64,000 nucleotides of DNA from Vulcanimicrobiota bacterium (GTDB taxonomy: Bacteria; Vulcanimicrobiota; Vulcanimicrobiia; Vulcanimicrobiales; Vulcanimicrobiaceae), in NCBI GenBank assembly GCA_019236975.1, contig JAFAHZ010000024.1, positions 5,096 to 69,095 on the forward strand. Reading direction: 5' to 3'. Numbering within the stretch: position 1 is the first letter of the stretch; every line of letters begins with the position of its first letter. Shown here piece after piece: positions 1 through 10,677 of the stretch. The notes beneath the pieces were generated by a model, which saw only the letters and a list, made by a program, of their open reading frames with translations, was not told the DNA's origin and did no database searches. The position numbers and the translations under genes were made by a program.

Positions 1-249
1 GGAGTCGTCGCCGAGCGTCGCCGGCGGCGGAGTGGGCCGAGCGAACGGATCGTGCCGCACAGTCAGTGCCGGGTACGCGAGCCGTTCGGGAATCGCCGGC
101 ACTTGCGGCGCCGCGAGGCGGCCACCGTTCTCGTCGAACGCGGGACCCGGAAGTGCGGCAAGCGGGACGAGCAGCAACGCCGTCGTCGACGTGGCAATCG
201 ACCACCGCAGCAGGCGCCGGCGTTGGTTAACGTTCAGGGGATCGAACAC
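1..249 (-). CDS. Partial CDS (N-terminal part only, runs off the left edge): secreted or membrane-anchored protein downstream of the pilO-like gene
   Basis: Absent from the ORF track because no stop lies in the window. The reverse strand reads GTG(249) FDPLNVNQRRRLLRWSIATSTTALLLVPLAALPGPAFDENGG..., a charged n-region followed by a hydrophobic segment, and stays open to position 1. It overlaps the upstream ORF end by 23 nt. No function can be assigned. Confidence 0.35.
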   Translation of the reverse strand, partial: MFDPLNVNQRRRLLRWSIATSTTALLLVPLAALPGPAFDENGGRLAAPQVPAIPERLAYPALTVRHDPFARPTPPPATLGDDS

Positions 250-826
250 TCGTAGCTTCCTCTCTATCGGCGCGCCGTTCGAACGGACGTAAACCAAAGT
301 ACAACGTCGCCGACACCGCGGCATCGAGCAGCGCGGCGTCGCCGTCGGTTTGCGGCGCTCGCGATAGCCGCACGGAGTCGACGCCGACGACGGTACGATG
401 TCTCGTGAGATCGGAGATAACGCTCAAAATATCGCCGTACTCGCCGCTCAGCGAAAGCGATACGGCTTGCGTTCCCGATTCTTGCGCGCTGCGGCCGCCG
501 GGAACGATTCCCCGAAAGCTGACGCGCCGGAGCTTAGACGCCGCATCGAGTTGGGTCAATAGGTCCAACGTGGGCTTTCCGCTGCCGCCCGCCCCGCGCA
601 GCTCGGTTAGGTCTCGACGAACGCGGCGAGCGGCTGCGGCAACGTCCGCACCGCGTTGCAGCGCTCGCTCGTTGCGGGCCGCTAACTGATACACGTTTGC
701 CGTCTCGACGGATACCGCGCGCACCTCGCGCTCCGACGGCGCCACGATCGTTCCGTAGCCGATTCCGCCGAGTGCGAGCACCGCAAACCAAGCCAACGTA
801 ACCGGCCGGCGCAACGGCGTATTCAC
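227..826 (-). CDS. PilO-like type IV pilus assembly protein (single N-terminal TM helix, coiled-coil region)
   Basis: Has an N-terminal TM segment (VTLAWFAVLALGGIGYG) followed by a coiled-coil-like region. It is third in a pilM-pilN-X arrangement and overlaps pilN by 4 nt. The call rests on architecture and context only. Confidence 0.5.
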   Translation of the reverse strand: MNTPLRRPVTLAWFAVLALGGIGYGTIVAPSEREVRAVSVETANVYQLAARNERALQRGADVAAAARRVRRDLTELRGAGGSGKPTLDLLTQLDAASKLRRVSFRGIVPGGRSAQESGTQAVSLSLSGEYGDILSVISDLTRHRTVVGVDSVRLSRAPQTDGDAALLDAAVSATLYFGLRPFERRADREEATSVRSPER

Positions 827-1374
827 GGCTGGCGCTCGGTGGCAACTTCGAAAGACAGCGCGCCGAGTACGCCGGCGTCTTTCGAGATCCTAACGCTAGC
901 GGGCCGCGGCATCGCCGGCGATCCGTCCAGCCGCGAAAGGAGCGTTCCAAAGCGCGCCAGGGTTTGCGCGCTTCCCTTCAGATCGTAGTCGTTTGCGTTC
1001 GCCTCCATCGCGTCGAGCGTGACGTCTGCCGGAAAGAGGTTGCCGATCTCCGCCAGGCGTTCGGCGGTCTTAGGCCCGGACAAGCGCACGTCGCGAAGCG
1101 CGCGATCTTCGGCGAGCAGAGTTTCGAGATCGCGCGACTGCACCTGCAAACGCTGCAACGCCTCGCGGCTACGCTCGAACCGGTCGTGCGCCGCGCTCAA
1201 AGCCCCCTGCGCGCCGGCGATCCGAGTGCGCTCGATTCCCGCCGCCACCACGCATAAGACGACCATCGCAACGAGCGCCGCGGCAACGTCGTGAAACCGG
1301 CGCGGCAACCGCATGGAGCGCACTGCATCGATCGCTCCGGGCGGTGCGTCGTGCAAAAAATCGAAACGCATCAC
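823..1374 (-). CDS. pilN: PilN-like fimbrial assembly protein
   Basis: Short cytoplasmic N-terminus, one TM helix (VAAALVAMVVLCVVAAGI), a coiled coil, then a PilN-type C-terminal segment (DVTLDAMEANANDYDLKGSAQTLARFGTLLSRL). The likely start is the GTG/ATG pair at 1374/1371, which overlaps the pilM stop (GTGATG). The track ORF extends further, to 1413. Confidence 0.6.
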   Translation of the reverse strand: MMRFDFLHDAPPGAIDAVRSMRLPRRFHDVAAALVAMVVLCVVAAGIERTRIAGAQGALSAAHDRFERSREALQRLQVQSRDLETLLAEDRALRDVRLSGPKTAERLAEIGNLFPADVTLDAMEANANDYDLKGSAQTLARFGTLLSRLDGSPAMPRPASVRISKDAGVLGALSFEVATERQP

Positions 1375-2342
1375 CGGCTCGCCCACGTTGCCAACGACGC
1401 CGCCAGCGTCCAATCCGGCGCGGCGGCCCGGCTAACGTCGTCCGGATACTGGCCCCCGCGCAGCAAATCGCTCACCGGTACGTCGACCATCGCACCGGTC
1501 AACGTTTCCAGCGATTCGGCCAAGCCGGCTAGACGCGCGCCGTTTCCCGTCATCGCGATCCGCCGAATGGTCAAGCGCTCGCGCAAAGCCGCGACCGCCT
1601 CGCCGACGGACGCGGCCAGCCGATCGCGAGCAGAATCGCCCGCACCCGCGGTTCCGAGGATGCGCTTGCGCCGCTCGGCTGCAGCGACGTCGATCGAAAG
1701 CGACGAGGCGATCGCGCGCGTAACGTCGGCGCCTCCCCCAGGTAACACGCGCGAAATCGGCCCCCCGGGCGAAAACGCGTGCAGCGTCGAACGTTTCCAG
1801 CCGACGTCGAGCACGGCATCCGCAAACGGAAAAGCGCGCTTCACCGCGCACGCATCGTGGTCGACGGCGACGGCCCGATACCCCGCGCGTTTCACGCACG
1901 CTACTCGCGCGTGCACGGCGTCGCTCCGCGCTACTCCTACCGCTACGAGACGTTCGTGCCGATTTACCCAGTGGGCCCGCACCAGCGTTGCTATCTCTTT
2001 CGCATCCCATGGCGAGAACCGTTCCGCTTCAAAACGAGCTGCCCGCCGCCGCTCGTACTCGTTCATCCGCGGAAACTGCAGAATCCGCAGCGCGGCGGAT
2101 TGGGACGGCAAGGATAGCACGCAGCGCCGTTCGCGCACGCCAAGTTCGCGCCGCGCGTCGTCGAGAATCGCAGCCACGACGTCGACGTCGGCGATGCGAT
2201 CCGGCTCGATGCAACCCTCCGGTACGTCGCGCACGGCAACAACGATCAATGCGACGGTTCGGTCGCGACGGCGCTCGCACGCAGCGACGCGAACGCGCGT
2301 CGAGCCCAAGTCGATGCCGAGCGGCATGATTGCAGTCCTCAC
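1371..2342 (-). CDS. pilM: Type IV pilus assembly protein PilM (actin/HSP70-fold ATPase-like)
   Basis: 323 aa. The N-terminus LGIDLGSTRVRVAA is a typical PilM/FtsA-like phosphate-1 motif. It sits directly upstream of the pilN-like gene and overlaps the peptidase gene stop by 4 nt. Confidence 0.75.
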   Translation of the reverse strand: MRTAIMPLGIDLGSTRVRVAACERRRDRTVALIVVAVRDVPEGCIEPDRIADVDVVAAILDDARRELGVRERRCVLSLPSQSAALRILQFPRMNEYERRRAARFEAERFSPWDAKEIATLVRAHWVNRHERLVAVGVARSDAVHARVACVKRAGYRAVAVDHDACAVKRAFPFADAVLDVGWKRSTLHAFSPGGPISRVLPGGGADVTRAIASSLSIDVAAAERRKRILGTAGAGDSARDRLAASVGEAVAALRERLTIRRIAMTGNGARLAGLAESLETLTGAMVDVPVSDLLRGGQYPDDVSRAAAPDWTLAASLATWASR

Positions 2343-2980
2343 CGAACGCTCGCAAGCAGGGCGTACGCGGCGCCCAACGCTAGGAATGGCGCAAAGCGCA
2401 CTTCAGACGTCCGGCGAGCGCCGCGAAAGAGTAGCACGACGGCGAACAGTGCTCCGACGACAAACGCGAAGCCGACGGCACGCAACGCGCCGCCCGTTCC
2501 CAGGCATGCGCCCAACACTAAAGCGAGTTTTACGTCGCCGAGGCCGATTCCACGCCCGCGGCTCATCGCGAAAAGCAGCCCGAGCAGCGTGCCCGCGAGG
2601 GCAGCCCCAGCGAGTGCGCCGGCAATTCGGCGATCGGCGAGCGCTGCACCCAATGCGAGACAGCTACCGGCGAGCAGAACGCGATCGAACACGTAGCCGG
2701 TTTGGAGATCGGTCACGGCGCACACCGCGCCGATCGCAAGTGCCACCGATGCGCTCCAATATGCGGCGGCATTTGAAACGGCAAGGCGAATCAGCGGCGT
2801 GGCGACCAACGCCGCCGCCACGTACGAAGCGCCCAAACGCAGCGGAACGCCGTACGAGCGCGCGCGCGATACTGCCAACGCCCCCAGCGCCGTCGCCGCG
2901 GCTGCCGTGGCGACGGCCGTCTCCAGGGCGATCACTCCGTGGCTCCCAGCCGCCGTAATGCTCGCCGTGCGGGCAGCCAC
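2339..2980 (-). CDS. A24-family prepilin peptidase (short form without the N-terminal methyltransferase/zinc region)
   Basis: Polytopic membrane protein carrying GRGIGLGDVKLALVLGACLG, the second catalytic Asp motif (GDVK) of type 4 prepilin peptidases. It lies next to pilM and a prepilin gene. Confidence 0.7.
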   Translation of the reverse strand: MAARTASITAAGSHGVIALETAVATAAAATALGALAVSRARSYGVPLRLGASYVAAALVATPLIRLAVSNAAAYWSASVALAIGAVCAVTDLQTGYVFDRVLLAGSCLALGAALADRRIAGALAGAALAGTLLGLLFAMSRGRGIGLGDVKLALVLGACLGTGGALRAVGFAFVVGALFAVVLLFRGARRTSEVRFAPFLALGAAYALLASVR

Positions 2981-3471
2981 TTCGGCGCGAAAGCGACCGC
3001 GCGACGGAAGAGTTCGATGGCGTTCGGCCGCCGGCCCAAGCGCATCGCCGCGAGTCCGGCGAACGTCAATGCCGTCGCATCGTGCGCGTGCAATCCGACG
3101 CGTGTAAAATCGGCCAGCGCGTCTTTGAGCCGCCCGCGTTCGCGGTACGCCATTGCGCGATCGAACCGCACCGCGTCGTCGTCGGCAAGCAGCAGGTAGG
3201 CCGAGGCGAGCGCGATCGCCGCGTCGACGGATTGCCGTTTACGCAGCGTTAGCGCGACGAACGCGTAGCGATCGACCGCGACGCCGTCGCACGGATTTAA
3301 ACGGACTGCTCGGTCGTAGTAACGCAGGGCATCCGACGCTCGGCCGCGATAGAGCTGTTCGTCGCCGCGCACGACTAGTGCCTGCGCCAACTGCGGTCGC
3401 AGCATCCAAGCCGCGATGATAACGCCCGCCACTGCGAGCGCAAGGCGGCGGAGAGGCGCGTCGACCTTCAT
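2932..3471 (-). CDS. Membrane-anchored TPR-repeat protein
   Basis: N-terminal TM helix followed by TPR-like helical repeats (ALRYYDRAVRLNP..., AMAYRERGRLKDALADF..., IELFRRAVAFAP). Confidence 0.55.
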   Translation of the reverse strand: MKVDAPLRRLALAVAGVIIAAWMLRPQLAQALVVRGDEQLYRGRASDALRYYDRAVRLNPCDGVAVDRYAFVALTLRKRQSVDAAIALASAYLLLADDDAVRFDRAMAYRERGRLKDALADFTRVGLHAHDATALTFAGLAAMRLGRRPNAIELFRRAVAFAPKWLPARRALRRLGATE

Positions 3472-4070
3472 GCGAGCAACGCGTAATAGGCGCCCAATGC
3501 GAGCAGCACGCCGCCGTTGACGGTTGCGGCCGCGCCGCGAGCCACGTCGTCTCTCGCAAGAGCTTCAAGGCGGGACCATCCTGCGGCTGCAACGATTAAC
3601 GGCAGGCTTTGTCCCAGTGCGAAGCAGACGAAGAGCGCGCACGCGAAGCCCGGGGCCGCGCCTGAAGCCGTTTCCGCGAGAGCGATCGCTACCGGCGCGC
3701 AACAGCCGGCGGCGCCGAGCGTACTGACGAATCCCACGAGAAACGATGCGCTCGTCCGCATGGACTGCGGCGTGCAACAGGACCGTCCCGAACGCCGCAC
3801 GATGCTCGCGATCGCGGCACACGTACACGCAACGCCGAGCGTCCAGTAGAGTGCCGGAGAAACGGCGAGCGCGCGCAGCGTACCCGCGGCGATCGTTCCG
3901 ACGGTCGCGTATCCCGCTACGGTTCCACACGTGAGTGCTGCCGGCGTGCGCCACCGCGACTCGCGGGCGCTCAGCGACGTCACTGCCAAGAATCGCGGGG
4001 CCGCGCACGGTCCGATTCCCGACAGCGTTCCCGCAACGAGTGCCGTCGCAGCTAAGGCGATGGGGTTCAA
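3468..4070 (-). CDS. CcdA/DsbD-like transmembrane thiol-disulfide electron transporter
   Basis: Six-TM-like hydrophobic protein with Cys-Pro motifs inside TM segments (GIGPCAAPRF and AAGCCAPVAI), as in the cytochrome c biogenesis CcdA/DsbD_2 family. It overlaps both flanking genes by 4 nt. Confidence 0.55.
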   Translation of the reverse strand: MNPIALAATALVAGTLSGIGPCAAPRFLAVTSLSARESRWRTPAALTCGTVAGYATVGTIAAGTLRALAVSPALYWTLGVACTCAAIASIVRRSGRSCCTPQSMRTSASFLVGFVSTLGAAGCCAPVAIALAETASGAAPGFACALFVCFALGQSLPLIVAAAGWSRLEALARDDVARGAAATVNGGVLLALGAYYALLA

Positions 4071-4534
4071 TTCGCGGCCGAAAATCCGGCCGCCGAGGTG
4101 TACTGAATGTGCGTATCCGTCGTGTTGGGGCTAATGTTCTGCAACGTCCCCGGATCGTGAATGCCCGGGCAAAGAATCGTATACGTCGCGGTCGACGAGC
4201 CGCTGCCCGTCACGGTATACGCGTAGTAGACGCCTGGGCCGCCCGCTGGATCCACCGGCGTCTGCTTCAAGTACGGCTGCAACGCCGTGTTGCTCGTATT
4301 GACCGTCCCGCTGGGCGGATAACTATCGTTGTCCGTTTCGTACAGTTCGAGCGCGGTAGCGATCTCTTTGAGATTGGCCTCGCAAGCGGCGGTCTGGGCC
4401 TGGGCGCGCGCCCGAATAAAATTCGGCACGAGAATGCTGACGAGTATGGCGATGATCGCTACGACGATCATCATTTCGATGAGCGTGAATCCTCGCTGGC
4501 CTTCCAAACGTTGCGTCTGCAGCACTTCTTCCAT
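4067..4534 (-). CDS. Prepilin-type N-terminal cleavage/methylation domain protein (type IV pilin or GspG-like pseudopilin)
   Basis: Class III signal: MEEVLQTQRLEGQRG|FTLIEMMIVVAIIAILVSILVPNF. This is followed by a GspG/PulG-like segment (AACEANLKEIATALELYETDNDSYP). A GGAGGG Shine-Dalgarno lies upstream. Confidence 0.85.
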   Translation of the reverse strand: MEEVLQTQRLEGQRGFTLIEMMIVVAIIAILVSILVPNFIRARAQAQTAACEANLKEIATALELYETDNDSYPPSGTVNTSNTALQPYLKQTPVDPAGGPGVYYAYTVTGSGSSTATYTILCPGIHDPGTLQNISPNTTDTHIQYTSAAGFSAAN

Positions 4535-4594
4535 CCCTCCGACGCAAAGGAGTGCCCGCGCGGGGCGCGCGCAAGACGCCGCGGCGAAACTGCG

Positions 4595-5746
4595 CTAGTA
4601 GGAGTTGGCTCCGGTGTGGATCGTGCTCGCACCGATACCGAAGATCACCGCAAGCGCGTTGTGGGTCTGCCCTTGCGTCGTGAGCACGTCCTCGATCTGC
4701 AGTTTGAAGGGCCGCCCCAAAAAGATGCTGGTTCCGTACACGAAGTCGCGCCCGAAGCCGCCGGCGCTCGTATTGACGCCATCCTCTCGCGCATACGCAA
4801 AGACCGATCCGCCGAGTTGATAGACGCCTTCCACATACCCGCCGCTGGATTGCATCGCCCGACCCGTTCCCAGCGGGTTCGTATCGTTGCCCGTTTGCCA
4901 CATGGCGCGCAGCGTAAACCGTCCGTGGTACGCGTTCGCTCCGTAGCCTTGACGCCAAAACTGATCGTCCGGCCCGAGCGCTCGACGCCCGGTGTACCGG
5001 TACACTTCGAAATCGGCGTTCTTCACCGTCTCGCGTCCCACGAACATCCAATCGGTGCCCGTTTGTCCGATAGGCGACCCCTGGTCGTGATTACTCAATG
5101 CGAGCACGGAAGCATTCAGCCCGCTGACTTCCTTGCCGAGCGATACCCTGATGCCGTCCATCGGCTCGTACAGATTGAACGGATTGTTCCCGACAGCTTG
5201 CACGAATACGGCGTAGTCTTGTTCGCTCAGCTTGAAGCGCTGTGGGTCGGTTGGCAAAATCAGCACCTGCTGCCCGGCACGGACGTCGATCGGGATTTTG
5301 TCCGTCCAGCTCGACGTGTATTCGAGCCACGCCTCGCGCAAATCGCCCGGCCGGCCGCCGTCGATGAAATACTGCTGCCCGTCGTATGTGAAATGCGGCC
5401 CGATGGGGCCGCCGACGAGACCGATGACCTTATCCACGATGTATTTAGGCAGTCCCGTTGGATCGGGATCGCTGAAGTACGCCGACTGCGCTTGGAGCGT
5501 CGCCGGCAAGTCGCCCCGGCCCACCAGCCGCGGAACCGCGTACCCCCGTGCTTTGAACGCCTTTCCGAAATCGGTGAGCTTGGCGGGCGTTACGTGACAC
5601 GTACCGCACGAAAGCAGCGTGCGGCGAGCGAACTCTTGCGTCGCACTCGCGGGGCGCGGATGCAGGACGCCGGCTGCCAGCAGCGCGATTGCCGCGATGC
5701 GGGCGATGCTCTTGACGATTGCCGGAACGTCGACGTTGTAAAACAC
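4595..5746 (-). other. Cyc2-like module (signal-peptide-like segment, single CXXCH, about 330 aa beta-rich, aromatic C-terminus); could be a separate product if initiated at the in-frame GTG at 5746
   Basis: The sequence (M)[34 protein letters not shown]|TQEF resembles a Sec signal peptide. CGTCH lies about 10 aa after the putative cleavage site. The remainder has alternating amphipathic strand patterns ([59 protein letters not shown]) and ends in ...GANSY. The call rests on architecture; no homology search was possible. Confidence 0.5.
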
Positions 5747-7723
5747 TGCTACCAGTTCGCGGAGCTGCTCCGACTTCGCATGCGAGCTTTGCGACGCTCG
5801 GTTCATTTCGGAAATTTGCTGCGACAGCACCCCCGTCGCGTCGGACACCTCTCGAGCGGACTTGGCCTGTGCGTCCGCAGACTCCGCAACCGGATCGATC
5901 GTGCTGCGTACCAGCGCGCTGCGCTCGCTGACGTGGCCCGCCGCCGCAGCATTTTCGCCGACAATCCTGGACACCGCCCCGATGTTCTGCGTCAGCGCGC
6001 CCGACGCGCGTTTCATCTCGTCCGAGCGATTTGCGACCTCCGCAGCGACGTCGCTCGTCTGCGCGATCGCCGCACCGAGCGCCCCGAGCGCTCCCGTCGC
6101 GTGCGCCGAGAGGACCATCCCGCTTTCGACCTGCTCCGAGGCCGACGAAATCGCCGCCGCCGCGCGCACGCTTTCCTCGCGTATCGCATCCAGGATCCGG
6201 CCGATCTCGCCGGTAGACACGCGCGATTTTTCGGCGAGCTTGCGCACCTCGTCGGCAACGACGGCGAACCCGCGCCCTTGATCGCCGGCGCGTGCGGCTT
6301 CGATCGCCGCATTGAGCGCGAGCAGATTCGTCTGATCGGCGATGTCGTGAATAACCGCAACGATCTCCGAAACTGCGCTCGAGCTGGTCTCGAGGTTCTT
6401 CATGGCCGAGTGCGCGACACCCGTGGCTTCCTTGATACGCTCCATCGCACCGGCAGTTTGCTCCACCGAGCGTTCGCCGCTTTGCGCCTCGACGCGCGCG
6501 TGCCCCGCCGCGTCCGCCAGCGTCGTCCCCATGATTGCCAACGCCGAGATTTGCTCGTCGAGCTGTCGAACCGAATCGACGGCTCCCAGCGCACCGCGCC
6601 CTTGCTCGTCGGAGGCCGCCGCAATTTGATGCGCGCTGCTCGCAAGCGCGTTGATTTCCCCGTGCGCGACCGCAATGCGCTCGGCCTGACTGTGCGCGCC
6701 GTCGGCGACGCCTTCCATCGATGCGGCGATCCGGTCGACGGCCACCGACGCCGAACCGGCCGCCGCCGACATGCGCGAATCCAGCTGCGCGAGGTCGACC
6801 GTTGCCGACGCGATGCCCGACATCACGCCGCGCAGCGTTTTGGCCATTTTGTTGAACTCCATGGAGATCAGGCCCAATCCCGCAGCTACGCCGTTGTAGC
6901 TGTTGGCAAGCTGTGCGATTTCGTCGCTGCCTTCGTCGGCGATGAACGACCGGTCCGATTCGAACGTTGCTGAAAGATCGCCCGCGCTTAGCCGGTCGAA
7001 CGCAGTCGTCAACATGGCGACGTCGTGTTCGGTCACGTCGAGCAGCGCGCGCGTAACCGACTGCAGCCGGCGCGCGATCGATCCGCCGATGAAGACGGCC
7101 GTCAACACTAACGCGAATGCCGCCGCAACGGTGCTCGCGAGCAGCGTCGTAACGAGCACGACCTGGGCCCGCTCGAACTGCGCTTCGGCAACCTTCGCCT
7201 GTTCCGTCGAGTAGCTAGCCAGCGCGTCGTTGTCGCGCCGTAAACTCTTGAACGATAGATCGGTGGCCGCCATGGCGGCGTCGACGTCGCGTGGGCGCCG
7301 AGCGCCCACCGCAATCTGCCGGTCGAAGCCTTTCTTGACGGCGTCGACGTCGGTTTCGATTTGCGCGGCCTCGATATCGACTTGCTCCAAACGCGCCGAA
7401 TCGATCGCGTTGGTTTGGTCGCTCTTATCGAGCGTCGACAGATCGCCGCTCAATGCGATTTGTGCCGCGTTTAGCGAATCTAAGTAACGCCTTTGACCCG
7501 TTGCGACGTATCCTCGCACTGCGGCCGACTGGTCCAGCATCTGGGCCATGACGTCGCGGGTCAGCGTGCTGATCGCGCCCAGGGCGGCGGCCTCGTTCGC
7601 TCGCGCGCGCATCACGGCGATGCGTCCGATGCCTACCGCCGTCACGATTCCGAGTAAGACGACGCCGATGAAAAAACCGGCACCGATCTGTACCGGAACC
7701 GGAAACCGCGATAGACCGTTCAC
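4595..7723 (-). CDS. CHASE3-HAMP methyl-accepting chemotaxis protein, read in frame into a Cyc2-like CXXCH plus beta-barrel-like module with no stop between them
   Basis: TM1 is followed by CHASE3 ([12 protein letters not shown]), TM2, HAMP, and the MCP signalling domain ([35 protein letters not shown]). The MCP part ends ...[11 protein letters not shown] and the frame continues without a stop. The likely true start is the GTG at 7723, which overlaps the upstream stop (GTGA). The track ORF start at 7897 would overlap the upstream gene. Confidence 0.8.
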
Positions 7724-8130
7724 GGCTTGGCGATTCCGCAGGCCGCCTGTGTGGCGATGTCGGCATACGACTTGTGCACGTTCACGATCAAATCGCCCGC
7801 CGTCAAACGTCCGATCGGGACGTCGAGCGTCGTCGTCGACTTGCCGTTGACGACGTCTTCGAGCGGATAGAGGGGACGAGGTTGGTACTTGTCGCACGTC
7901 CCGGTGTGAAAGTGTGCCGGCTGCTCGATAGCCGATCCGTTTACGAGGCTAACGGTTACGACGGTTTTTGCACCCTGCGCCTTCAGCGTCGCCGTTCCGG
8001 ATTCGCCGCTGCCGTTTAGTGCGTCGAGCCTCACGACCACGATCTGTCCCGTCTCCGCCGCTGCGGCCTCCACGGTGACGCCCGCGGCGCCGAGTAAGAT
8101 CAGTACTGCACCTGCAACTCGCGCGTTCAT
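7720..8130 (-). CDS. Small secreted protein with a SodC/CHRD-like fold signature
   Basis: The ATG at 8130 is preceded by AAGGTGA. Signal peptide: [25 protein letters not shown]. The motifs [17 protein letters not shown] and a C-terminal AACGIAKP resemble the HxH...C, VHxx and ACGVI motifs of Cu,Zn-SOD-like proteins, but the zinc-loop histidines are not evident. The stop overlaps the MCP start (GTGA). Confidence 0.5.
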
Positions 8131-8222
8131 CTTCACCTTCAGCGGCCCAGCAGCCGCTCGCACGCAGTGTCGCAAGCGACTGTGAATAAAGTCTGAAAAC
8201 CTTCATGCTTCTGAAACGGCGC

Positions 8223-8891
8223 TCACGGGCGCAAACGGTAGCCCACGTTCCAAATCGTTTCGATAACGCCGTCGGCGCCGCAACGCCGCAGCTTGTTGCG
8301 CAACTGACTGACGAAGACGTCGACGACGTTACTGGAGCCGGTGCGCTCCTCGCGAAGACGATCGAGAATTTGCGCGCGGGAAAGGGTCATCCCGGCATTG
8401 CGCGCCAGGTACTCGAGCAAGCGAAACTCCGTGGGGCCGAGCGTAAGCGGCACGCCTGCATATCTGGCCGTGCAGCCGGCGACGTCGACCCGCAGCAATC
8501 CGACCTCGATCGTCGTCGCGTCCCCCCGCTCGCCGGTCCGGCGCAACAGCGCGGATACCCGCGCGAGCAGTTCGTCCTCGGCGAAGGGCTTGACCAAATA
8601 GTCATCGGCGCCCGCGGCGAATCCGGCGACGCGATCTTCGATCGCATCGCGCCCCGATAGCATGAGAATCGGCACTCGCACGCCTTCACTTCGGACCCTG
8701 CGCACTAATTCGAAGCCGTCGATGCCGGGCAAGCCCACGTCGACGATTGCCGCATCGTGGACGTGGCGCCCAAGGAGTTCCAGGCCGGATGCGCCGTCGG
8801 CGGCGACGCTGACGGCGAACAACTTCGCTTCCAGCATCGAGCGAATTGCGCGCGCAGTCGAAGGATTATCCTCGACCACCAGGATCTGCAC
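8223..8891 (-). CDS. OmpR/PhoB-family response regulator (receiver plus winged-helix DNA-binding domain)
   Basis: The receiver domain reads MQILVVEDNP...DAAIVDVGLPGIDGF...LSGRD...YLVKPF. The C-terminal trans_reg_C reads LTLGPTEFRLLEYLARNAGMTLSRAQILDRL...VDVFVSQLRNKL...IETIWNVGYRL. GTG start. No histidine kinase gene is adjacent. Confidence 0.9.
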   Translation of the reverse strand: MQILVVEDNPSTARAIRSMLEAKLFAVSVAADGASGLELLGRHVHDAAIVDVGLPGIDGFELVRRVRSEGVRVPILMLSGRDAIEDRVAGFAAGADDYLVKPFAEDELLARVSALLRRTGERGDATTIEVGLLRVDVAGCTARYAGVPLTLGPTEFRLLEYLARNAGMTLSRAQILDRLREERTGSSNVVDVFVSQLRNKLRRCGADGVIETIWNVGYRLRP

Positions 8892-8955: not shown

Positions 8956-9561
8956 TTGCCGTACCAGCATGAAGCCATGCTCTCGCAGCGCGCCGACTCC
9001 GTGCCCTTGCTCAAAATTCTGCTCGAACAGAAGAATCGCGCGACGGCCGAACACTGCGAACGCGTCATGCGGTATTCGGTACAACTCGCCTGCGAGGCGG
9101 GCGTGACGGGCGACGCCATGCACGCCGTCGCGAACGGTGCGCTTCTGCACGACATTGGAAAGCTGCACGTTCCGAGCGACCTGCTCGCCTACCCCGGGCC
9201 TCTCGAGGACGACGCGATGGCTTTGGTACGCACGCACGCGCTGCGCGGTGAGGATCTTCTACGCCGGTTTCCCGGGCTGCGGATGAAGGATATCGCTCGC
9301 ATCGTCGGAGCGCACCACGAGTGGTTCGACGGTTCGGGCTATCCGCGCGGTCTTGCCGCGCGCGCAATTCCGTACGGCGCACGCATCGTAGCGATCTGCG
9401 ATGCATTCGATGCAATGACCGCCGGCCGGTGCTACCAGCGTCCGCGCTCGTACGCCGCTGCCATCGAAGAACTCGTCGCGTGCTCGGGCACGCAGTTCGA
9501 TCCGGAACTCGTGCGCACGTTCGTCGGTATGGGCGAGCGTTATTTCAGAATCTCTTCATAG
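8956..9561 (+). CDS. HD-GYP domain protein (putative c-di-GMP phosphodiesterase), stand-alone
   Basis: Carries LLHDIGKLHVP and HHEWFDGSGYPRGL (HD and GYP motifs). The start is the TTG at 8956 or the ATG at 8977. Confidence 0.85.
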   Translation: MPYQHEAMLSQRADSVPLLKILLEQKNRATAEHCERVMRYSVQLACEAGVTGDAMHAVANGALLHDIGKLHVPSDLLAYPGPLEDDAMALVRTHALRGEDLLRRFPGLRMKDIARIVGAHHEWFDGSGYPRGLAARAIPYGARIVAICDAFDAMTAGRCYQRPRSYAAAIEELVACSGTQFDPELVRTFVGMGERYFRISS

Positions 9562-9582: not shown

Positions 9583-10677
9583 ATGATATATCGCCGCATC
9601 GCTCCCACGCACCTCACTGCGTGTGCCGCTATCGCCATGACTGCTTGCTCCGGCGGCGCACCGCGCCCGTCGTACGTTCCTCCCGCGCCGATGCGCGTTG
9701 CCGCGGAGGCTCCCAACGTAGCAAACGATACCGGCAACATTCTCATCGCCGACCAGTGGAACAATCGCGTCGTCGAAGTCGACGCACAGCACCGCATCGT
9801 TTGGCAGTTCGGTGACGGCTCGTCGATCGCCGGACCGCACTCGGTTGTCGGCGTCAACGACGCGGAGCGTTACGGCAAACTGACGCTGATTGCAGGAACG
9901 GGGTTACCGGCAGGCACGATTCCGGCGTGCAGCAAGAAACCGTGCCAAGACAATCGCGTCTTCGTCGTCGACCAAACGGGGAAAATCGTTTGGCAATACG
10001 GCAAGACCGGCGTTCCGGGATCCAAAGCGGGGTACCTCAACGCGCCGGTGAGCGCGATGCATCTGCCCAACGGCGGCGTCCTCGTCACCGACCAAGGCAA
10101 TCAGCGCGTCATCGAAATCTCGGCGTCGAAACGCATCACCTGGCAGTACGGAACAACGGGTAAGAGCGGCGCGGGTGCCGGGGAGCTGAACAATCCCAAT
10201 AGCGCGCAGCTTCTCTCCAACGGCAACGTCCTGATCGCCGACGAGAACAATAACCGTGTGCTCGAGGTGACGCCGGCTGGAAAGATCGCGTGGGAATACG
10301 GTTCGCCTAAAGACACCAAGAAGCTGGACGGTGCGGCCTATGCCAGCCGGCTATCCAACGGAAACACGCTGATCACGGATTCGCTCAATAGCCGCGTCGT
10401 CGAGGTCACGCCTTCCGGACGCGTTGCGTGGAGCTACGCCACCAACAAACAGCACGGCAGCATCTCGGCCCCGCAGCCGTCGCACGCAGTACGCCTCAAG
10501 AACGGCGACACCCTCGTGAGCAATCAGATCGACGACGAGATCGTCGAAGTGACGCCGGCCGGCAAGATCGCGTTCCAGCAGGGCAAAGTGGCCAAGCCCG
10601 GCGCGAAGTTCGACGAGCTAAACTGGCCGTACGATGCGAAGGTCGTCGGAGATTACACCGGCCTAACGACGCCGTAA
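9583..10677 (+). CDS. Secreted lipoprotein, six-bladed beta-propeller-like repeat protein (NHL/YncE-like)
   Basis: Lipobox AIAMTAC|SGG. Six repeats of roughly 45-50 aa end in NNRVVEV, DNRVFVV, NQRVIEI, NNRVLEV, NSRVVEV and DDEIVEV, each followed by a WQYG/WEYG-type motif. Confidence 0.7.
   Translation: MIYRRIAPTHLTACAAIAMTACSGGAPRPSYVPPAPMRVAAEAPNVANDTGNILIADQWNNRVVEVDAQHRIVWQFGDGSSIAGPHSVVGVNDAERYGKLTLIAGTGLPAGTIPACSKKPCQDNRVFVVDQTGKIVWQYGKTGVPGSKAGYLNAPVSAMHLPNGGVLVTDQGNQRVIEISASKRITWQYGTTGKSGAGAGELNNPNSAQLLSNGNVLIADENNNRVLEVTPAGKIAWEYGSPKDTKKLDGAAYASRLSNGNTLITDSLNSRVVEVTPSGRVAWSYATNKQHGSISAPQPSHAVRLKNGDTLVSNQIDDEIVEVTPAGKIAFQQGKVAKPGAKFDELNWPYDAKVVGDYTGLTTP

Follow-up and report, generated by a model that had tools for sequence, protein, structure and literature searches.

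Background

Can a single bacterial gene supply a chemoreceptor to the inner membrane and a cytochrome-porin to the outer one? The question is raised by an open reading frame (ORF) in a 64,000-nucleotide stretch of a Vulcanimicrobiota bacterium genome (contig JAFAHZ010000024.1, assembly GCA_019236975.1), which as a whole is called the window here. On its minus strand, a gene for a methyl-accepting chemotaxis protein (MCP) continues without a stop codon into a signal-peptide-like segment, one haem c motif and a predicted beta-barrel, an arrangement that recalls Cyc2. The initial annotation had offered three options for this junction: (a) a true fusion with a cleaved internal signal peptide, (b) internal initiation at an in-frame GTG, and (c) a lost stop codon or an assembly error.

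Cyc2 is the main genomic marker for microbial iron oxidation, and its physiological wiring is known for few Proteobacteria. Here, we describe a fusion that, judged by its recurrence in independent assemblies, is real and inherited in a Baltobacteraceae (Eremiobacterota) chromosome. From this one gene, two proteins with separate target membranes probably arise, and we lean towards a polyprotein that signal peptidase I cuts into a chemoreceptor of the inner membrane and a Cyc2-like protein of the outer one.

Layout of the fusion gene

The minus-strand frame is open over 4595..7897, and the segment 7723..4595 encodes 1042 codons. GTG 7723 is the likely start, because it shares the sequence GTGA with the stop of the 151-aa gene upstream and because the independent gene calls of two orthologs, P0258 (MNPLVRFPVAVQIG) and P0262 (MLSRLPVFAQIG), begin at the homologous position. 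The chemoreceptor part (residues 1-659; 5747..7723, minus strand) ends in ...LRELVA. Along the whole product, hydropathy peaked strongly in two transmembrane (TM) stretches, residues 8-38 and 186-218, and over a shorter third one at 672-688. Thus read, TM1 lies at about 7690-7622, the putative periplasmic sensor at about 7621-7157, and TM2 at about 7156-7082, followed by a probable HAMP linker (about 7012-6881) and the MCP signalling domain (6517-5963), whose hairpin carries the conserved tip. The Pfam match to MCPsignal was strong (PF00015, E 3e-39, 135 bits against a cut-off of 34.6), whereas HAMP (23.5 bits, cut-off 25) and CHASE3 (24.1 bits, cut-off 28) stayed slightly below threshold. The CHASE3-HAMP-MCP architecture first proposed is therefore firm for its signalling domain and narrowly sub-threshold for the other two.

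The junction (5642..5746) opens with VF, the final two residues of the MCP, which a short linker connects to the internal signal peptide. Read codon by codon, the frame passes from CTG GTA GCA GTG TTT TAC through the linker and the signal segment to CCC GCG AGT GCG, the predicted cleavage site, and on into ACG CAA GAG TTC without a stop, as the initial annotation had described. A short cytochrome domain follows (5641-5555) with the haem c motif CGTCH at residues 706-710 (5594..5608), and then a predicted 16-strand outer-membrane barrel (4598..5503; AlphaFold2 and Foldseek) that ends in ...GANSY before the stop codon at 4595-4597. CGTCH is the sole CXXCH of the 1042-aa product, and its two cysteines are the only ones in it. 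A single CXXCH and a barrel-like stretch up to GANSY had also been expected from the letters, and both were borne out.

A 1012-codon open frame on the plus strand (3935-6973), rich in Arg, Ala, Pro and Gly, was rejected as a gene: it is a GC-rich shadow ORF, since it lies wholly antisense to the MCP gene with its strong domain support.

Conservation of the junction

The same in-frame junction was found in four further independent assemblies, which makes five with the window, all metagenome-derived. The closest is a Baltobacteraceae metagenome-assembled genome (MAG) (L002, a MEGAHIT-style contig that ends within the barrel), identical to the window at 74% of the MCP half and 85% of the Cyc2-like half. 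A contig from JGI, available as a protein sequence (P0001), presented 78% identity in the Cyc2-like half. The fusion on a 3.9-Mb contig (L001 = P0258, 1043 aa) shared 58% of the MCP and 68% of the Cyc2-like half, and that on a second MEGAHIT-style contig (L096 = P0262, 1035 aa) 44 and 42%. Across the other fused sequences, identity to the window ranged from 40 to 85% for the Cyc2-like half and from 44 to 74% for the MCP half, and divergence has run in parallel in the two halves. Among the top matches of an exhaustive HMMER search over 1.84 billion cluster representatives were two fused ones. A metagenome scan with a junction-spanning query returned distant relatives only and no additional fusions.

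These data bear directly on option (c), by which the junction would be a lost stop, a sequencing or assembly indel, or a decaying pseudogene. The idea has some appeal, since in most relatives the two genes are separate, in different frames and with a 1-4-nt overlap, so that one indel error could mimic a fusion. However, the junction recurs in five assemblies, with MEGAHIT-style contigs and a 3.9-Mb one among them, neither half is disrupted, conservation of the two extends over more than 1000 codons, and fused representatives stand in the protein library itself. Because the same junction is found five times with both halves intact, we exclude an assembly artefact or a recent pseudogene, to which we attach almost no probability, and reject this option.

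The C-terminal module and Cyc2

The initial annotation had likened the C-terminal module to Cyc2, the outer-membrane cytochrome-porin. Searches by name gave little: the C-terminal 383 aa had no match in Pfam or NCBIfam, and a search from a distant family member (P0018) returned unnamed proteins, a few with porin Pfam matches, and no Cyc2-named entry. A sequence-profile search of the module against the PDB produced matches of E at least 0.2, which we rejected as chance CXXCH matches. The search for relatives was more productive. Homologs of the C-terminal 383 aa reached E 1e-201, and nearly all are standalone proteins of 362-387 aa from Eremiobacterota/Baltobacteraceae, each with its own N-terminal signal peptide and an invariant C-x-x-C-H. 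In an alignment of 20 homologs (A1), C47, C50 and H51 were invariant, so the conservation that the initial proposal depended on was found.

At the structural level, AlphaFold2 with the 20-sequence alignment returned the barrel that had been suspected, with 16 beta strands (pLDDT 73, pTM 0.71). Most barrel blocks scored pLDDT 64-91, and the haem region was of low confidence, as expected without the cofactor. Foldseek against the PDB matched the model to the 16-strand porins BpsOmp38, Omp32, PorB, OprP, OprO and OmpF, with E values from 4e-11 to 1e-9 (OprP 2o4v, 4e-10; OprO 4rjw, 8e-10). For the porin domain of Cyc2, Keffer et al. 2021 (PMC8406198) report the same two structures, OprP and OprO, as structural homologs.

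Pfam holds no Cyc2 model, so we recovered Zetaproteobacterial Cyc2 through the mass-spectrometry peptides of strain PV-1 listed in Table S1 of PMC8406198. This search returned Mariprofundus isolates, not PV-1 itself, and gave an alignment of 17 Zetaproteobacterial Cyc2 proteins (A2), including those of Mariprofundus ferrinatatus CP-8 and M. aestuarium. With hhalign, A1 and A2 matched at 98.2% probability (E 2.8e-14) and, after removal of the signal peptides, still at 96.9% (E 1.3e-10 over 97 columns). A plain A2 HMM gave the window protein 16.6 bits only, confined to the cytochrome region, which fits the known poor conservation of the Cyc2 porin part. The window cytochrome stretch aligns to IPAFARQTGAACLSCH..FPALNAFGRSFK of Zetaproteobacterial Cyc2.

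Cyc2 is defined by a signal peptide, AxPxFAR[Q/K][T/Y] before CXXCH, PxL after it, and a 16-strand porin (PMC8406198); the definition of Keffer et al. 2021 and FeGenie applies PxFAR[Q/K][T/Y] as a hard filter and a length of at least 365 aa. In the window we found a signal peptide before the cytochrome domain (by manual reading), one N-terminal CXXCH, a predicted 16-strand porin and sequence homology. The motif itself reads A-T-Q-E-F-A-R-R-T, with Q in place of P and R in place of Q/K, and after the haem motif comes CH-VT-PAKL, in which the Pro of PxL is one position off and the Leu (L57) invariant. The spacing from FAR to CXXCH (FAR-xx-xxx-C) is that of PV-1, whose reference motif is ...FARQT-GAA-CLSCH-FQTF-PALNAFGR, and FAR, L and FG are common to both. 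This Pro is absent in the closest homologs (VGVKL) and present in P0012-P0019 (VIPHL, PQL) and in Zetaproteobacterial Cyc2 (FPAL). Distant family members (P0012-P0019) match or nearly match the FAR consensus (e.g., P0018, AMPAFARKY; P0013, AIPVFAHRY). In length, the module counts 383 aa from GTG 5746, 348 aa when mature and 1042 aa as an ORF.

Because the motif deviates from AxPxFAR[Q/K][T/Y], we regard the C-terminal module, on its sequence and modelled fold, as a divergent Cyc2 homolog with Cyc2 architecture and not as a strict member by the published filter. The Cyc2 identity first put forward thus holds for the architecture and the profile match (hhalign 97-98%) but not for the strict motif, which differs at two positions. 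The family as such is not new in this phylum, as MAG surveys have already attributed both Cyc2 and a predicted oxidation of iron to Eremiobacterota/Baltobacteraceae (PMC8357290, PMC13594681).

Unfused operons and probable origin of the fusion

For a comparison of gene neighbourhoods, we fetched 79 genomic loci with a member of the Cyc2-like family. An MCP gene lies directly upstream of the Cyc2-like module in 14 of them, fused in two and separate in 12. When the gene upstream of the module was scanned with Pfam in 62 loci, MCPsignal turned up in 12 of them and no other family in more than two. In the MCP-bearing loci, the MCP gene is usually preceded by a homolog of the small secreted protein encoded upstream of the fusion (P151), which was found in this position in 11 loci.

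The 12 unfused operons belong to other Eremiobacterota (L003, L005, L009-L011, L016, L017, L022, L024, L026, L028, L044) and have the same gene order as the window. They differ from it by a TGA stop of the MCP gene and a separate porin gene with its own ATG in a different frame. Stop and start overlap as ATGA in nine loci and as TGATG in two, and lie 5 nt apart in one, an arrangement from which we take the two genes to be translationally coupled. Compared with the window, identity was 53-64% for P151, 35-43% for the MCP and 34-39% for the cytochrome-porin. Unfused MCPs end in ...AFRF, a poorly conserved tail of 10-35 residues and TGA, whereas fused ones pass from ...VFRN.D into the signal peptide. 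To create the fusion, an indel of one or two bases in the MCP tail could suffice, as far as these sequences indicate. By the same comparison, the operon of P151, MCP and Cyc2-like cytochrome-porin is, as we read it, the ancestral state.

The family appears to be multi-copy in Eremiobacterota, with two fetched loci from each of several MAGs. The closest standalone paralogs (62-69% identity) lie directly after a response regulator of OmpR type and a HisKA histidine kinase in L081 (1786-7113), L082, L084 and L086, and others stand alone (L080, L085, L097, L099). Farther upstream, we observed a SCO1/SenC gene (L081, L082), a Lipoprotein_15 gene (L081, L084) and a 375-aa protein without a Pfam match. 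The context of OmpR-type regulator and HisKA kinase is a second recurrent tie of the Cyc2-like family to signalling genes.

In a neighbour-joining tree, some standalone paralogs nest within the clade that holds the fused sequences. Thus, the number and the direction of fusion and fission events are not settled, and the tree does not discriminate one fusion event from two. One paralog, P0002 (L080:851-2014, with an HNH endonuclease gene upstream), has an N-terminus, MNARLLIASLVRMPANAQRFRIAVAL, that resembles the MCP tail and linker of the fused genes (...RLRKLVGVFRNMEVPALRDNVIRIAAMAL), and it may be the relic of a broken fusion, to judge by this resemblance.

Two other variants of the family were noted. 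P0323 (652 aa) and P0335 (600 aa) combine the Cyc2-like barrel with a C-terminal extension that carries one or two extra CXXCH motifs, e.g., HSCAQCHGAGG and NCTSCHGAAG. At the locus of the standalone P0011 (L097:9660-10624), genes for a CheY-like receiver and a CheC/CheX phosphatase lie about 2.5 kb downstream of the Cyc2-like gene, which may be coincidental.

The internal signal peptide and its predicted processing

The C-terminus of an MCP is cytoplasmic. The hydrophobic segment that follows it here would thus have the N-in/C-out orientation of a signal peptide. In the window, the n-region ends in ...KSIAR, the c-region reads HPRPASA, and the predicted signal peptidase I site, ASA|TQEF, falls between 5642 and 5641. 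The segment aligns with the N-terminal signal peptides of the standalone homologs and of Zetaproteobacterial Cyc2 (...SEA|IPAFAR), and the predicted cleavage position is identical in all of them (...A|[IT]xxFAR). All five fused junctions (window, L002, P0001, L001, L096) have an Arg before the h-region, an h-region of 12-15 residues and a Pro or Gly in the c-region, with small residues at -3/-1 in each (ASA, ALA, ADA, ASA, ASA). The h-region has not been lengthened to a stable TM helix. Because these features and the cleavage position are conserved, the segment would therefore be a retained, cleavable signal peptide and not a permanent anchor. Of the three options we favour (a), in which the internal signal peptide of a true fusion is functional, over (b) and (c).

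From the sequences we infer the following course, in which export by the internal signal, cleavage, haem attachment, the outer-membrane location and any sensory link are all predictions. In this lineage, both genes would have come into one frame through a small indel close to the 3' end of the MCP gene, and the ribosome would make a single 1042-aa chain. The chemoreceptor would take its place in the inner membrane, its signalling hairpin on the cytoplasmic side. As a third, N-in/C-out membrane segment, the signal peptide that was retained would carry the C-terminal 348 residues through Sec, and signal peptidase I would cut after ASA (residue 694). The freed module would gain one haem c on CGTCH in the periplasm and insert into the outer membrane as a 16-strand barrel. 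The outcome would be the same two proteins that relatives make from separate genes, at a fixed 1:1 ratio. An outer-membrane destination is plausible, since the only cultured member of the phylum has an outer membrane with lipopolysaccharide (PMC9758169).

Several points weigh against this course. The n/h/c layout is a manual reading, and the processing of the polyprotein is a prediction from genes. The signal peptide would remain on the receptor C-terminus through only 5-14 linker residues, where it may be sterically at odds with the signalling hairpin. Close standalone paralogs occur in other gene contexts, and the direction of the fusion and the number of events are not fixed. Moreover, GTG 5746 could open a separate 383-aa precursor, the linkers of L001 and L002 also hold in-frame GTG or ATG codons, and Shine-Dalgarno motifs are weak or absent before most of the candidate starts examined in the window, most of them unverified.

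The last of these points touch on option (b), by which the Cyc2-like precursor would come mainly from an in-frame start (GTG 5746 in the window), in the manner of CheA-L/CheA-S, with the read-through fusion a minor or tolerated product. GTG 5746 would give a plausible signal peptide of 35 residues, and the linkers of L002 (GTG, ATG, GTG) and L001 (two GTG) offer starts as well. A missing Shine-Dalgarno motif at the junction does not speak against it, since such motifs are weak or absent before most candidate starts of the window. However, GTG is a common Val codon at 64% GC, and with no stop codon every ribosome that translates the MCP makes the fusion anyway. GTG 5746 is the only canonical candidate in the window junction; as the initial annotation had stated, the signal segment after it holds no ATG, GTG or TTG. 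A GTG at the V of VF is common to the window and L002, and the other candidates are at positions that are not conserved among orthologs. In L096, whose linker is shorter by several codons with the reading frame kept, no ATG, GTG or TTG lies between the MCP end and the cleavage site, so its module would be made only as part of the fusion. Internal initiation is thus possible in the window but not general, and as the main source of the Cyc2-like protein we consider it unlikely; it may add to the polyprotein route in some members.

A fusion that stays uncleaved would be anchored in the inner membrane by three TM segments, with its barrel in the outer membrane or periplasmic and the receptor physically coupled to the cytochrome-porin. 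The ORF is indeed continuous and conserved, and cleavage is inferred from sequence. The five junctions speak against it, however, with A-x-A and an upstream Pro or Gly in 5/5 and an h-region as short as in the standalone homologs. In addition, the stretch from the site to the first strand, with the haem domain in it, counts only about 45 residues, probably too few to span the periplasm while that domain docks on the barrel. We consider this arrangement improbable and retain the cleaved polyprotein as the working model.

Neighbouring genes

The cluster begins with a gene for an OmpR-type response regulator (8223..8891, minus strand; Pfam Response_reg 1e-27, Trans_reg_C 1.6e-21), which confirms the regulator named in the initial annotation; it is also found upstream in L002 at 71% identity. 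P151 follows (7720..8175, minus strand), with a probable start at ATG 8130 (MNARVAG...) and a stop that overlaps the MCP start (GTGA). The protein carries the signature QPxHxHxGTC...NVH...C, in which H88, H90 and C94 are invariant and H134 and C146 nearly so (alignment A3). Among 13 family members, CHRD matched seven (best E 0.002) and Sod_Cu one (E 0.0075), all below threshold, and a single-sequence AlphaFold2 model was of low confidence (pLDDT 43). A secreted neighbour was thus correctly recognized, while its SodC-like label depends on sub-threshold matches only. P151 was also detected upstream of Cyc2-like genes without an MCP (L004, L007, L008) and at L096:165-566. Since it accompanies Cyc2-like genes even where an MCP is lacking, P151 may act as a metal or redox partner in the periplasm.

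Directly downstream of the fusion lies a gene for a GspG-like pilin or pseudopilin (4067..4534, minus strand; N_methyl 6e-9, GspG TIGR01710 7e-16). It opens a type IV pilus cluster on the same strand (227-4534) with a DsbD_2-like membrane protein (3468-4070; E 0.0047, below cut-off) and, by family matches, a TPR protein (2932-3471), the prepilin peptidase PilD (2339-2980), PilM (1371-2342), PilN (823-1413) and PilO (227-826). The CcdA-like label given to a neighbour also comes from sub-threshold matches only. In the neighbourhood of the L001 fusion we found no pilin, DsbD or TPR matches. The type IV pilus genes were therefore rejected as part of the fusion system, as they are not adjacent to the fusion in L001 or L096.

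On the other side, a gene for an HD_5 (HD-GYP-type) protein (8956-9561, plus strand; E 4e-34) diverges from that of the OmpR-type regulator and is followed by one for a secreted NHL/beta-propeller protein (9583-10677). Housekeeping genes make up the remainder of the 64-kb window, and the Pfam families listed for it (25 of 52) include no che or respiratory ones.

Possible function and significance

The pairing of chemoreceptor and cytochrome-porin, recurrent in operons and then fused, together with the frequent presence of P151, argues that receptor and cytochrome-porin work together, as far as gene order can indicate. A functional coupling of the two had been suggested from the window alone, and the conserved operon in distant relatives strengthens the idea. 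One may reasonably hypothesize that such a pair serves to sense Fe(II) or redox gradients or to guide taxis along them.

In a bolder proposal, which we regard as a long shot, the polyprotein would be obligate and give rise to a sensory device across the envelope. The haem-porin would sample extracellular Fe(II) or redox state and pass electrons or a signal to the His/Cys-rich P151; the periplasmic domain of the receptor would read it and steer type-IV-pilus motility in a flagellum-less phylum, with the cleaved signal peptide kept as a third receptor anchor. Type IV pili are the sole means of motility in the one member of the phylum that is in culture (PMC9758169). If true, iron or redox taxis would be hard-wired to an iron oxidase homolog.

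Whether this homolog oxidizes Fe(II) to conserve energy is a separate question. It could instead be a conduit for redox or metal sensing or for detoxification, or a porin that carries a haem, and we take this to be a serious contender at slightly less than even chances. The strict Cyc2 motif is altered, the mature protein is short (348 aa), and the family is very large (4520 cluster representatives at E <= 1e-3 in the 1.84-billion library), apparently multi-copy and spread over many gene contexts. The genes that repeatedly accompany it encode signalling proteins, either an MCP or a histidine kinase together with a response regulator, and no respiratory genes lie nearby in the window. On the other hand, the conserved, functional cytochrome domain of Cyc2 is retained, and the MAG surveys cited above predict Cyc2 iron oxidation in this very phylum.

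Our literature search found no description of a conserved P151-MCP-Cyc2-like operon, none of such an operon converted to a single ORF with an internal signal peptide, and nothing usable on any link between Cyc2 and a chemoreceptor. A Cyc2 homolog is here tied to a chemoreceptor, first by translational coupling and then by gene fusion, as the operon comparison suggests. In Eremiobacterota, a soil phylum that is abundant and has hardly been cultured, this offers a concrete, testable link of an extracellular-electron protein to behaviour. If the polyprotein model is true, the gene would be a rare natural bacterial ORF that supplies both the inner and the outer membrane via an internal signal peptide. 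At the technical level, gene callers report an 'MCP' of 1040 aa, and filters by length or N-terminal motif (FeGenie) may misjudge the Cyc2-like module hidden in it. The finding is of interest to the fields of iron oxidation, chemosensing and protein targeting.

Comparison with known systems

The closest precedent for the processing is the FbcH cytochrome b/c1 precursor of Bradyrhizobium japonicum, reportedly described by Thony-Meyer et al. in 1989-1991 as split at an internal signal peptide. Both ORFs join an inner-membrane protein that ends in the cytoplasm to an internal signal peptide and a c-type cytochrome. The features of an FbcH-type precursor are present here, with a cytoplasmic end of the upstream part (from MCP architecture) and an internal n/h/c signal with AxA in five fusions. 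In FbcH, the c-type cytochrome is said to be exported and cut off by signal peptidase, and both products to stay in one inner-membrane complex. Here, in contrast, the upstream product is a chemoreceptor, the downstream one a predicted outer-membrane barrel, and the cleavage a prediction as well.

As in the Cyc2 of Mariprofundus ferrooxydans PV-1 and Acidithiobacillus ferrooxidans, cleavage is predicted just before FAR, with CXXCH about 12 residues into the mature protein. The module also shares the FAR-x2-x3-CxxCH...L-x-x-FG-[KR]-x-F pattern, the 16-strand OprP/OprO-like barrel and the C-terminal aromatic residue. Unlike Cyc2, it makes up the last third of an ORF that starts as a chemoreceptor, so its signal peptide is internal. 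It also differs by the A-T-Q-E-FAR-R-T motif, a shifted PxL (PAKL) and a shorter mature protein (348 aa), and its role as an iron oxidase is putative.

The upstream part resembles two-TM MCPs of the Tar/Tsr type and of the PilJ type, which controls type IV pili: TM1, a putative periplasmic sensor, TM2, a probable HAMP and the signalling hairpin follow one another. It departs from canonical MCPs after the C-terminal helix, where the fusion has neither a stop codon nor a CheR-binding tail and goes on into a third hydrophobic segment and a module predicted to be exported.

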